DNA from: Candidatus Cloacimonadales bacterium
GTDB lineage: Bacteria; Cloacimonadota; Cloacimonadia; Cloacimonadales; JAIOQZ01
Reading direction: 5' to 3'
Assembly: GCA_963665815.1 (NCBI GenBank)
Contig: OY762463.1
Span: 2,048,001-2,112,000 of the forward strand
DNA: 64,000 nt
Positions 11,790-62,500 of the stretch are shown here, piece after piece. Positions within the stretch are counted from its first letter, which is position 1, and each line of letters begins with the position of its first letter. The position numbers and the translations under genes were made by a program. The notes beneath the pieces are model-generated. The model worked only from the letters and a program-made list of their open reading frames with translations, was not told the DNA's origin and did not search any database.

Positions 11790-12072
11790 TTAGAAAAGTA
11801 TGCAAAATCTATTTGCCTCATAATATTCTTCTTCCATTCTCTGTTTAACTAACTGAGCTTTTATGCGTATCATCTGCACATAGTAGTTATATGCGGACTC
11901 TGCTCCGTCAAGCCATGAGCTCGCAGGACGAAGTCCGAGAGTCTCCACTCCGAAGTCTGTATAACGTAAGTTCGAAGACCATAGGAGGTACATTACTTTT
12001 CAAGGAACCGTTTTCCCCAATATATTCAGTTCAAGTCGTGTTCGTCAATAATTTCTCTGTTTTCACCAATAA
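11790..12072 (-). pseudogene. Degenerate terminal orphan Rhs cassette
   Basis: Rhs-core remnant at 11998-12072 matching 37002-37072, hairpin element, LDGA, then a short CT stub. Confidence 0.6.
11915..11999. repeat. Tandem-hairpin element, copy 1 (2 units)
   Basis: GAGCTC-GCA-GGAC-GAA-GTCC-GA-GAGTCTC and GTCT-GTA..GA-AGAC, then CATAGGAGGTACATTA. Confidence 0.85.
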
Positions 12073-12100
12073 ACTTATATCAGTATAAGATAAAAAAACT

Positions 12101-13333
12101 CTATTTAAAACATGGATCATAAGTATAAATAGAAATACTCTTGTTTGAAGTATCCCTCTTTTCTTCTTGAAAAACATACAATTTATTAGTATTTATAATA
12201 CACTTTATGATATACATATCTATATCAGGATCAATATAGTAAAACTTTGATTCAGCAGTATCAAATATTCCCGGCTTAAGTGTTGTTCCTTCTCTGTGTA
12301 AGATTATACAGTTTTCAAAAGTAGTGTTCGAGAAATCTGATATTGGATAATATTCATACTCAATTTTCTTGGGATTTAAATTTTCATCTATTTCGAAAAC
12401 TGTTACTAAGCTATCTGATGTACTTCCATATAAAAATAACTTATTATTTTTATCTATCAATGAAAATCTGGAGTATTGACTAATACTATTGTTTACTATT
12501 AGTATATCCGGATTATCATAGTCAAATTCATTGTAATGTTTGATATTAAGAGAGTGTGTATCCAAGCTGAACAGAATATTATTATTAAGAGATACGTCTT
12601 GTTGTTGATGGCCTCTTATTGCTTTTACTCTATTACAACAACTAGCAAACAAGAATAAATTATCATCAATGATACTGACATCATTTGCAGATACGAAGCT
12701 GCCTGAATCAAAATAAAGGATTTCTCCCCATTCACCTTTATCTGACATCTTCGCTATAAAACCAACAGGGTAATCCTCTTTTTGCTTATTTACTTGTTTA
12801 TCCTCAAATTCGGCTGATCCAGTTAATTCTCCAACAATGTAAATTTGATCATATTTGTCCAATGCAACATTGTTTGGTTTACAACTTAACTTTGGATTAA
12901 TACTATTATTCCAGAGTACTGTACTATCAGGAGCAAATTTTATTATAAATGTGGAATTTATTACAGTTTTATATCTTTTCTGCAATTCACAGACCCCACT
13001 AACAATGATATTGTCGGAGTTATCAATATTTATATGCTTAGGATATAAATTATCCTCAAGTAATTTTGACCATAAAATATCTAAATTTTTATCAAACTTT
13101 ACAATATAACTTTTGTGCACAATTATATTCTCAGTCTTGGATTTTTCGTACCTGTATCCAATAAATATACAGTTTCCCAAATTGTCTATTGCAATATTCG
13201 CTACTACAAAATCATGCATAAATTCATTCTTGATCACATATTGGTTACATTCAATATTACTTACCTTTTTATCACCGAATAAATTAATATACAATATCAG
13301 TACAACAAATATACATACAGTTTTTCTTAACAT
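12101..13333 (-). CDS. Exported beta-propeller protein, putative immunity
   Basis: Signal peptide; repeated IAID..GN / IVKFD....LW motifs; directly follows a CT. Confidence 0.7.
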   Translation of the reverse strand: MLRKTVCIFVVLILYINLFGDKKVSNIECNQYVIKNEFMHDFVVANIAIDNLGNCIFIGYRYEKSKTENIIVHKSYIVKFDKNLDILWSKLLEDNLYPKHINIDNSDNIIVSGVCELQKRYKTVINSTFIIKFAPDSTVLWNNSINPKLSCKPNNVALDKYDQIYIVGELTGSAEFEDKQVNKQKEDYPVGFIAKMSDKGEWGEILYFDSGSFVSANDVSIIDDNLFLFASCCNRVKAIRGHQQQDVSLNNNILFSLDTHSLNIKHYNEFDYDNPDILIVNNSISQYSRFSLIDKNNKLFLYGSTSDSLVTVFEIDENLNPKKIEYEYYPISDFSNTTFENCIILHREGTTLKPGIFDTAESKFYYIDPDIDMYIIKCIINTNKLYVFQEEKRDTSNKSISIYTYDPCFK

Positions 13334-13348
13334 TTAATTCTCCAATTA

Positions 13349-60506: not shown

Positions 60507-61217
60507 TTATCGGTAATCAACATCAAAGGAAACATTTCCTTCAAATGTAGTATTTGCTGAAGACATTCTTGTATGTATTGATACTTGTCTAATTTTAAGT
60601 ATATTATGGATAATTTCAGAATTAAAAGTGAATTCTGTAGAATTTTTCATGTTTTCATTTGATAATTCTGATGTACATCCCTCTAGTACAATTAAGCTAT
60701 CAACAGTATTATAAGTATATGAAATAATGGATGATATATTATTATCTGTGACAGATTCCCTAATCAAAATATTATTCCCTTTTCTATTTACCTCATAGTC
60801 ATTTTCTTCTGACAAAATATTGAAGTAGTGTTCAAAAGACAAAACTATATATTCTTGAAAGGCGGTAATTTGATTTTCTATGCTGATATTTACTTGATTA
60901 AGACCATCAGCTTGCTGTTGAGATAGCTTTGATTGCTCTATAAAGAATATTTTTGGAGGTTCGACAATGAAATTCCCATCAACGTATTTTAGAATATAAA
61001 GTATGCTATCTGGTGATTCAATGTTGCCTTTTGCAAATCCATCCAACTGTTTTTCTGTATTAAGATAAAGTCTTTTAATCTCGTTGCATGAAATCTCTAC
61101 ATTTTTGTATTGATTAAGAAACTTCTGATTTAGAACCAGTTTATCTGTTATATCTCTAATATTATCACCATACAGCTTTGATATGAAAATTAACATTATT
61201 AATAATGAGAATCTCAT
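60507..61217 (-). CDS. Exported hypothetical protein
   Basis: Signal peptide; resembles the 21427 ORF. Confidence 0.6.
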   Translation of the reverse strand: MRFSLLIMLIFISKLYGDNIRDITDKLVLNQKFLNQYKNVEISCNEIKRLYLNTEKQLDGFAKGNIESPDSILYILKYVDGNFIVEPPKIFFIEQSKLSQQQADGLNQVNISIENQITAFQEYIVLSFEHYFNILSEENDYEVNRKGNNILIRESVTDNNISSIISYTYNTVDSLIVLEGCTSELSNENMKNSTEFTFNSEIIHNILKIRQVSIHTRMSSANTTFEGNVSFDVDYR

Positions 61218-61693
61218 AGAACATCCTTATCGTTTTTTAATAGTAATATGTTTTTGAAAAAATGTCTTAACATAATTACAGTGATTTTGTATCCAGATTG
61301 GTTCGAAATTAATGTATATAGCATAAGAAATGATAACAGGAGTAAAAAAGGAATCCAAAGAGAATACACTATATGGGCACTAAGTATAAGAGAGAAAATG
61401 GAATAAGATATACTCCAATAAAATCTGAAACGCAAAGTATAACTATGCTTCAATCTTATATCTATATTAAAACCGGAAATAATCATATTTTCTGAGGTTT
61501 GAGATGTAATATATTCACCAAAACTTAGATATTGATTATGTCTCTTACCAGAAAAAATGAGCATATTAAAAAGGGGAGGAATCAGTCCTATAAAAATAAC
61601 TAAATTAATGTTGTTTTCTGTTAGAATAGATGCAATGAAACAAAAAATAAGTAAAACCATTGTATCAATTGCGAATGAGATAAATCCTTTCAT
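61214..61693 (-). CDS. Multi-TM membrane protein, putative immunity
   Basis: About four hydrophobic segments; GGAG RBS; follows a CT. Confidence 0.65.
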   Translation of the reverse strand: MKGFISFAIDTMVLLIFCFIASILTENNINLVIFIGLIPPLFNMLIFSGKRHNQYLSFGEYITSQTSENMIISGFNIDIRLKHSYTLRFRFYWSISYSIFSLILSAHIVYSLWIPFLLLLSFLMLYTLISNQSGYKITVIMLRHFFKNILLLKNDKDVL

Positions 61694-61705
61694 TTTTTCT
61701 CCTTT

Positions 61706-62500
61706 TCATTTTTGAGGTTCACCAATATTAAGAAAAGACTCCATTGAGTCCAATGCATCTGCAGCAGTAGGAACTACTCCGGGTTCATCAACTTTGATAT
61801 TACCCTTTTCTACCTCTCCTTCATATTTTTCCTGTACTTTTTGAACAGAGTAAGTAATAGCAGCTTCGGCAGTTTTCATGTTAATAACTCCTCCAGCAGC
61901 AACACCCAGAACGAAGTAAGCTTCTTTCTTCATAGGTAAATTAGGATCTTCAGCATCGCATGCTAATGCTACTGTCTCCACAGTTGCACAGGTACCAGCA
62001 GTAGTTCCTGCTAGCATACTAATCATCCCTGCTGCAACTGCAATTGAAGAACCGCCTGTGAGGATTGCTGTTGCTCCACCTGCTATTCCTATCCCTGCCG
62101 CAGCCCATAATGAACCTGCAGTCCACGCTCTTCTAGACTTGCTTACAGTTTCCTTCGCTTTTTCACTAGCAGCCCCATCCGGATCAAGGAAGTTCAATGG
62201 GTCGTTGTGGCAATACACATAAGGACTAAAGAACTCATCAGCTGGGTCAACGACCATCCAGCACCCGAGCTGTGGGTCGTAATAACGCACACCGTAGTGG
62301 TAGCAATGAGCTTGCAGGGCATAGCCCGAAAGTCTCCAAAAATGAGCTCGTAGCCGCAGGCGAGAGTCTCCACTCCGAAGTTCGTAGGATTTGAATCCGA
62401 GAACCATAGGGTGTACATTATTCTCATCTTCAAATTCTTTGTTGTTGTAAAGGAATTTGTTATCCACACTATTGTTAACAGATAATCCCAGAATCCTCAT
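61706..62500 (-). CDS. Orphan Rhs core + hydrophobic Ala/Gly CT (possible pore former)
   Basis: DPLNFLDPDG then WAAAGIGIAGGATAILTGG. Confidence 0.82.
   Translation of the reverse strand: MRILGLSVNNSVDNKFLYNNKEFEDENNVHPMVLGFKSYELRSGDSRLRLRAHFWRLSGYALQAHCYHYGVRYYDPQLGCWMVVDPADEFFSPYVYCHNDPLNFLDPDGAASEKAKETVSKSRRAWTAGSLWAAAGIGIAGGATAILTGGSSIAVAAGMISMLAGTTAGTCATVETVALACDAEDPNLPMKKEAYFVLGVAAGGVINMKTAEAAITYSVQKVQEKYEGEVEKGNIKVDEPGVVPTAADALDSMESFLNIGEPQK
62304..62424. repeat. Tandem-hairpin element, copy 7
   Basis: In-frame insert. Confidence 0.88.

Follow-up and report, generated by a model that had tools for sequence, protein, structure and literature searches.

A modular hairpin repeat of conserved fold in the core segment of orphan Rhs cassettes of a Candidatus Cloacimonadales bacterium

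Repetitive extragenic palindromes (REPs) typically lie outside genes, in many copies and in head-to-head pairs, and those with a GTAG tag are proposed to be mobilised by Y1 HUH enzymes, the REP-associated tyrosine transposases (RAYTs) or TnpA(REP). Pneumococcal BOX elements and the bacterial interspersed mosaic elements (BIMEs) of enterobacteria are assembled from a small set of modules, fixed in order and variable in number, and fold into stable hairpins. The attC sites of integrons are associated with cassettes, conserve structure over sequence and hold unpaired bases within the stem. Orphan Rhs cassettes are thought to be a toxin reserve, which is brought into use by homologous recombination through the conserved core. 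According to the excerpted text of Di Nocera et al. (PMC3733652), GTAG REPs have an unpaired GTAG tag, with GYAG and other variants, and stems of 5–13 bp; their sub-families have alternative complementary stem residues, some stems contain unpaired GA, clusters are frequent, and intragenic copies occur as singles, dimers or groups encoding 20–30 amino acids. Rickettsia palindromic elements (RPEs) are presented in the excerpted text of PMC10969869 as palindromic repeats that insert in frame in protein-coding genes. Here we describe a small hairpin element in a 64 kb stretch of a Candidatus Cloacimonadales genome (contig OY762463.1, positions 2,048,001 to 2,112,000; hereafter the window, to which element counts and absences refer unless said otherwise). 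With a probability of roughly one half, we read it as a REP/RPE-like, lineage-restricted hairpin repeat that colonises the homology segment of silent Rhs cassettes and spreads mainly by recombination between cores, with a trans-acting activity behind rarer insertions.

The window holds two arrays of Rhs cassettes, both on the minus strand and each headed by a lead Rhs gene (Table 1). Two covariance models, R1 built from six B units and R2 built from ten A/A2 units, were run on both strands with filters off. Together they recover exactly 16 hairpin units, ten of type A/A2 and six of type B (E from about 1e-9, at most 7e-10, to 1e-19). Every unit is on the plus strand, i.e. antisense to Rhs, and the seven sites they form lie without exception inside Rhs_assc_core-coding DNA, in six orphan cassettes. 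The models gave no unit on either strand of the lead genes, the three clean orphans, the toxin and immunity genes, the spacers and the housekeeping part. Remaining matches at E < 1 were one chance-level R2 match at 22512–22536 (minus strand, E = 0.6) and cross-matches to the other unit type (E 0.02–0.9), each spanning the two inner tiers, which indicates that A and B units are related. The type A flank pattern with a free interior matched 10 times in the window and never in 100 shuffles. The GC content of the element is 0.47–0.58, against a mean of about 0.35 for the AT-rich window (about 0.29–0.43 per kb).

An earlier note on this DNA had announced seven copies between 11915 and 62424, made of one, two or three units, absent from the two lead Rhs genes and replacing different lengths of core. 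Covariance models of the kind it proposed, run on the window, and the alignment with the leads bear out each of these points. The stem variants it listed are all present, and we found one more (outer ATTC/GAAT at 26624). It had also confined the element to orphan cores. This holds for every unit in both arrays, but not every orphan has the element, which is present in 6/9 orphans retaining a core fragment (3/6 in array 1 and 3/3 in array 2).

Each unit is a three-tier hairpin of 30–43 nt, and the whole element measures 33–121 nt. On the plus strand, the A unit reads GAG-CTY-GNA-(3–4 bp stem, 3-nt loop)-GA-RAG-T-CTC and the B unit CTCC-GAA-(4 bp)-GYA-(4 bp stem, 3–4-nt loop)-GA-(4 bp)-CATA-GGAG. 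Conservation across the 16 units is highest at the internal loop, G-N-A opposite G-A, and at the pairs that close it (Y-R outside, G-C inside); the sequences of the hairpin loops vary. Units fall into five outer and five inner stem classes. In the Rhs sense strand their order is invariant: an AT-rich cap (roughly AATAATGTACCTCC), B, A and an optional A2, and single units are either A or A2. RNAfold and RNAalifold both give the three-tier fold unprompted, on either strand.

GTAG-tagged REPs are the closest described class. As in the excerpted description of these REPs, we find hairpins that are short and rich in GC, a sequence 5′ of the stem that resembles the unpaired G(T/C)AG tag, alternative complementary stems, unpaired GA in some stems, grouped units, and intragenic groups that encode peptide. 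The tag (G-N-A plus the first stem base) is GTAG in 8/16 units, GCAG in 7/16 and GGAG in 1/16. Unlike in GTAG REPs, it is enclosed by the outer stem, the tiers have 3–4 bp (inner stem 3–4 bp in the window units, compared to the 5–13 bp stems in the excerpt of PMC3733652), and units run head to tail in a fixed modular order instead of head to head. Moreover, the 64 kb contain no extragenic copy, no RAYT gene was seen there, and all known copies are in one domain-coding segment. RPEs, as far as their excerpted description goes, are likewise palindromic, inside coding genes, often in frame and peptide-adding; they are about 150 bp long and occur in many unrelated, still functional genes, whereas the present element is shorter, modular and known only from silent Rhs cassettes. 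BOX and BIMEs share with it a module set, a fixed order, a variable count and hairpin folds, and differ in being intergenic, spread over the genome and made of longer modules. Literature listings on palindromic repeats of Rhs orphans and on Rhs miniature inverted repeats showed no such element. Overall, the element looks like a small non-coding, structure-dependent modular repeat of the REP/RPE/BOX kind, with an unusual target preference, and not like a new kind of system.

The stems vary in sequence and stay paired. Among 12 distinct units, 70 of 72 pairs are Watson–Crick in the six base pairs flanking the internal loop, while random re-pairing of the halves gives 52.8 ± 3.8 and none of 20000 re-pairings reaches 70. 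Pairing holds in 97% of the cells of the six B units, and 5/12 of their pairs are changed on both sides, these changes being carried by three different copies. None of 500 column shuffles matched the observed values, and sliding the partner by 1–3 columns abolished the signal. The inner stems of the A type are perfect in nine of ten cases and carry a single mismatch in the tenth. As a negative control, the A-flank pattern with a free interior was searched over 596 Gb of genome contigs, which gave at least 119 matches in unrelated phyla; an inner stem of at least 3 bp was present in none of the 119 chance matches listed from other genomes. Much of the stem variation is between discrete classes (e.g., B1 GTTC/GGAT vs. 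B2 GTCT/GAAC) and not stepwise. Compensatory changes in both inner tiers, together with the different reading frames at different sites, support the structure-selected signal suggested in the earlier note: the constraint acts on the fold and not on the sequence or the encoded peptide.

The NCBIfam model TIGR03696 (Rhs_assc_core; cut-off 32.5 bits) matches all eight core-bearing proteins tested, both leads and six orphan open reading frames (ORFs), with 35–64 bits. In the element-bearing orphans this match begins only at profile position 17, 18 or 38. We drew the insert boundaries from an alignment with the lead genes, used as empty-site references, and it shows an insertion that replaces some target bases. 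In array 2, the element is in frame in 3/3 orphans and adds about 35 residues, so that EDD-YNLNW-YHYG of the lead becomes EDE-NNV..(40 aa)..-YHYG. At site 6, in the orphan at 59990, the right junction directly abuts WMAVDP, which removes YHYGVRYYDPQLG as well. None of the three array-1 orphans (four sites) keeps the frame, and all three have stops. The B + A insert and the single A insert of the orphan at 34150 each shift the frame, with stops between them, and in the orphans at 26520 and 11850 B + A takes the place of the whole stretch from DPQIG to FVE, likewise with a broken frame and stops; at site 1 the replaced part runs from after ..KRFL up to LDG. The junctions in the window comprise four distinct left and four distinct right ones. 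The element is not bounded by inverted repeats.

Relatives were sought at the protein level with the first 100 residues of the orphan 57909–58793, which retrieved 19 proteins. Eight of them carry the element in frame (two ORFs of the window, five on the same 3.96 Mb contig and one on a 1.28 Mb contig of another genome), and eleven are element-free orphans on these and other contigs. The 40-residue element peptide alone gave 8 matches at E ≤ 10 among 5.8 billion sequences (lengths 71–2000 aa) and 6 among 1.84 billion representatives, protein matches of a kind biased towards in-frame copies; they were the same proteins only, and neither collection holds the peptide in that frame in a full-length Rhs or a non-Rhs protein. 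A profile mixing the other two sense frames found no match, missing even the known frame-2 copy in the related protein P0008, and is thus insensitive. A distant-mode search of a plasmid collection gave no match.

Nine family-2 orphans with nine different toxin ends share a common element-bearing leader, three in the window and six further proteins (P0001, P0002, P0004, P0005, P0006, and P0008). P0005 and P0006 have a 2-unit form joined to WYHYG, and P0004 has an extra A2 between QLG and WMAVDP. P0008 adds a further core site, with a second B + A insert between FFSP and LYNDP, in another frame than frame 0 of array 2. This second insert encodes a peptide that agrees in 18/19 residues with frame 2 of the array-1 B + A copy at 34223–34300 (B variant 34256). 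Two diverged Rhs families thus have the same variant, placed differently in the core and read as different peptides, which speaks for a DNA that moves and against a function of the peptide. At sites 11914 and 26590 both junctions are identical and the flanks, by eye in the alignment, nearly so; their B hairpins are of different stem classes. The B2 class, as MVFELTFYRL, is also found in family-2 orphans elsewhere in the genome. The P0004 form (A2, YHYGVRYYDPQLG, A2, WMAVDP) would yield the form of 59990 and P0008 by A2–A2 recombination; a 3-nt microhomology deletion would produce the same A2–WMAVDP form.

In the mechanism we propose for a REP/RPE-like repeat, the hairpin would form in single-stranded DNA and be recognised by a trans-acting enzyme or by the repair machinery. 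Recognition of a folded single strand would explain the compensated stem changes. The element would spread by cassette duplication and gene conversion among the many near-identical copies of the Rhs core, as suggested by the junctions shared on different toxins and by the B1/B2 swap between sites of identical junctions. Occasional new insertions may occur elsewhere in the same 76-codon core domain, and recombination or slippage between copies may remove the intervening core, which would explain why different lengths of core are replaced. In array 1, the stops and frameshifts of the element fall in the homology that an orphan would need for recombination with the lead. The element would survive in orphans since these are probably not expressed as Rhs proteins, and would be purged from lead genes.

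Among the three ideas that the earlier note had offered for the signal, a REP-like HUH substrate is the best fit: G(T/C)A followed by G reads GYAG, and alternative stems are present. However, several results weigh against our reading. No HUH/Y1 gene was found in the window, Pfam giving no Y1_Tnp match among the 46 ORFs scanned. None of the 16 units is extragenic, and their head-to-tail fixed order is unlike that of typical REPs. Every insertion has lost 3–15 nt or more of the target, unlike in clean transposition, and the junctions in the window show no target-site duplication. The covariation comes from a small and related sample (six B and six distinct A/A2 sequences), in which shuffle statistics overstate independence, and template switching at quasi-palindromes could yield paired changes in a single event without selection. 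Folding energies compared with shuffles show no significant excess (z from +0.4 to −2.2). Between arrays, the element is 74–80% identical compared to 56–72% for the most conserved 68 nt of the core, a modest excess. Finally, all sites fall within a single Rhs_assc_core domain (about 228 nt), and the far longer silent toxin-coding parts and spacers are empty. This confinement is the part that a model of tolerated junk explains least well, and it leaves some room for a function as a cassette lock or recombination signal or as an RNA element.

The hairpin could act as an RNA element instead, either in the sense Rhs or orphan transcript (processing, stability or recoding, e.g., ribosome bypass of frame-breaking copies) or as an antisense RNA from the plus strand, although we consider this unlikely. 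The common fold that RNAalifold finds on both strands is compatible with it, and the fold gains slightly in stability on the plus strand (−13.8 vs. −11.5 kcal/mol). Across the 3-unit element, the sense strand is largely open in all three frames, and stops occur in two of the three antisense ones. On the plus strand, two of the six B units have what look like GNRA-type loops, and the G-N-A/G-A loop could form sheared G-A pairs. Against an RNA role, the two element regions match no Rfam family above chance level, even at E = 10: their matches at E ≤ 10 reach 12–14 bits, compared to gathering scores of 38–95, and only a tRNA passes the gathering threshold in the window. The units have no T-run, no convincing promoter and no conserved loop sequence, and a simple terminator scan picked up the terminator hairpins at cassette ends instead of the units. 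The regulatory RNA of the earlier note therefore finds no backing in Rfam or in terminator likeness. The single G-U pair that might tell the strands apart sits at the edge of the element, and the functional strand is indistinguishable from it. Bypass would moreover skip residues essential to the core domain.

We regard it as unlikely that the hairpin is a signal dedicated to the recombination or "locking" of Rhs cassettes, whose folded single strands would be recognised as in attC, or would stall replication, and so control the exchange or deletion of orphans. It is confined to the very core segment through which orphans recombine with the lead, its orientation to the cassette is fixed (16/16 units), and a right junction lies at the homologous G-R|W position in both diverged arrays (34378 and 60041) and in P0004. 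It keeps its structure while the sequence varies, it is associated with cassettes and it has unpaired bases in the stem, all as in attC, and a tyrosine recombinase gene is present at the end of array 1. However, the leads have no copy and thus no partner site of the attI kind, three of the nine core-bearing orphans are element-free, and core position and unit number differ between cassettes. The units are much shorter than attC and are found within the coding leader and not where the cassette ends, and all copies are direct repeats, between which site-specific recombination could only delete. Island integrases usually adjoin a tRNA gene and an excisionase-like gene. The integrase found here carries Phage_int_SAM_5 and adjoins tRNA and HTH_17 genes, which is this usual layout and not an integron-type context; with the missing partner site and the clean orphans, it speaks against the cassette recombination site that had been suggested. 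A broader version, in which the core-targeted hairpin governs cassette dynamics by locking orphans from exchange with the lead while recombination between copies trims or releases cassettes, seems improbable to us. If it were true, the element would play in polymorphic-toxin arrays the part that attC has in integrons, or would be a homing repeat whose target is a single domain.

It is very unlikely that the insert is kept by protein-level selection as a surface loop that lengthens the family-2 Rhs core by about 35 residues, with incidental hairpins: it is in frame in the three array-2 orphans and in six further database orphan proteins, but such matches favour in-frame copies, the three array-1 orphans are out of frame with stops, stem changes alter the peptide freely (MVLGFKSYEL vs. 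MVFELTFYRL) with pairing kept where the DNA is visible, P0008 reads the same DNA in another frame, and the peptide is in no full-length Rhs protein among the 1.84 billion representatives.

Other identities were considered and discarded. In a kink-turn, the GA pairs are placed differently. Hammerhead and other small ribozymes had no Rfam match, and a tRNA-like T-arm had no match either. The target hairpin of a diversity-generating retroelement was rejected as Pfam found no reverse-transcriptase gene among the 46 ORFs scanned. An uptake sequence for the ComP_DUS-like pilin (47143–47667) would be dispersed, which the units are not, and in the simple scan they are not like intrinsic terminators. 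A miniature inverted-repeat transposable element does not fit, with bases lost instead of a target site duplicated and without terminal inverted repeats. The CTTGA flanking the insert at 26590 was rejected as a target-site duplication, two CTTGAC sites pre-existing in the core.

A repeat that lands repeatedly in the homology used for recombination would decide which cassettes stay usable, and the element is a compact case for studying target choice by REP-like hairpins. Should it be no more than a tolerated selfish repeat, it would still be a clear case, outside Rickettsia, of an intragenic, frame-independent repeat of conserved structure. It also calls for care in annotation, element-bearing orphans being called as intact ORFs with an odd Arg/Leu-rich insert.

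Table 1. Element sites, Rhs arrays and neighbouring genes in the window.
Feature	Position	Strand	Description
Site 1	11914..12000	+	A (11917–11945) + B2-kind B (11948–11987; outer GTCT/AGAC, inner AAC/GTT, one mismatch), then cap
Site 2	26590..26675	+	A + B; B outer ATTC/GAAT, 3-nt loop
Site 3	34222..34308	+	A + B between ..NNPAN and LDG..; net +77 nt; stops in Rhs frame
Site 4	34378..34410	+	Lone A (inner GCC/GGC) between QIG and WHS, in the orphan of site 3; net +34 nt
Site 5	58598..58718	+	A2 + A + B; in frame in orphan ORF 57909–58793 (−); replaces codons for YNLNW
Site 6	60041..60161	+	A2 + A + B; in frame in orphan ORF 59532–60293 (−); A unit with one C-A mismatch
Site 7	62305..62425	+	A2 + A + B; in frame in orphan ORF 61706–62500 (−)
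Array 1	lead gene 35819–45772 down to ~11.5 kb	−	Rhs cassettes
Array 2	lead gene (62874 to beyond 64000) on to ~56.5 kb	−	Rhs cassettes
Lead Rhs gene, array 1	35819..45772	−	3317 aa; Rhs_assc_core at residues 2882–2958; element-free; empty-site reference
Lead Rhs gene, array 2, 3′ end	62874..64000	−	Continues past the window; element-free; empty-site reference
tRNA gene	9162–9235		Distal end of array 1
Tyrosine recombinase gene	9416–10504		Phage_integrase + Phage_int_SAM_5; distal end of array 1
HTH_17 gene, excisionase-like	within 9162–10840		Beside integrase and tRNA genes

The 3317-residue lead protein of array 1 has no Pfam match at E ≤ 0.001, and only TIGR03696 recognises its end; Pfam found no RHS repeats at this threshold in any of the 46 window ORFs scanned. 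The protein is a very divergent Rhs/YD shell. Given the tRNA, integrase and HTH_17 genes at its end (9162–10840), array 1 may be on an integrated island; a search of the window for a copy of the tRNA end, as would mark an island boundary, gave nothing above 14 nt. Between the arrays there is an operon resembling type IV pilus or type II secretion systems (47143–56448, plus strand), with a ComP_DUS-like pilin, PilX_N, T2SSF, T2SSE, a secretin, PilN and PilO. The window showed no type VI secretion genes.

A conserved terminator-like hairpin closes each cassette, and the core fragment of the next orphan starts directly after it, which indicates a fixed cassette layout of leader, toxin, immunity gene and terminator. 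In array 2 this hairpin is AAAGCCAGAAAC..GTTTTCTGGCTTT plus a T-run (minus strand; 62819–62845, 60417–60443, 58987–59013, and 56508–56530). The one of array 1 is different, AAAGCCTGC..GCAGGCTTT (14544–14574, 26757–26787, 30473–30503, and 34508–34538). Two core-less ORFs start with a common leader of about 70 residues (MEANMRNARVSAMVNEKL...), which is also present inside the toxin part of two core-bearing orphans. Its DNA is 87–93% identical over 300 nt (13349–14428, 15990–17075, 18527–20062, and 22501–24105, minus strand), and it seems from this sharing that cassettes are also exchanged at a second level, downstream of the Rhs core.

An HExxH motif is present in 7/9 toxin ends of array 1 and in 0/4 modules of array 2. 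The C-terminal modules of array 1 concerned are those of the lead (residue 3199) and of ORFs 33102–34112, 28625–30334, 25545–26531, 18527–20062, 15990–17075, and 13349–14428. The motif suggests a metallopeptidase-like toxin family, and none of these ends matched Pfam or NCBIfam. The genes that follow toxin modules at 26776–28611 and 30500–33160 (minus strand) encode leucine-rich-repeat proteins of 611 and 886 residues. The other post-toxin genes (12101–13333, 14572–15981, 17187–18539, 24142–25548, and 34535–35815) encode proteins of about 410–470 residues with N-termini that by eye resemble signal peptides, and among these 24142–25548 alone has a weak, sub-threshold Pfam match to the SBBP beta-propeller. 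These products are unusually large if they are immunity proteins.

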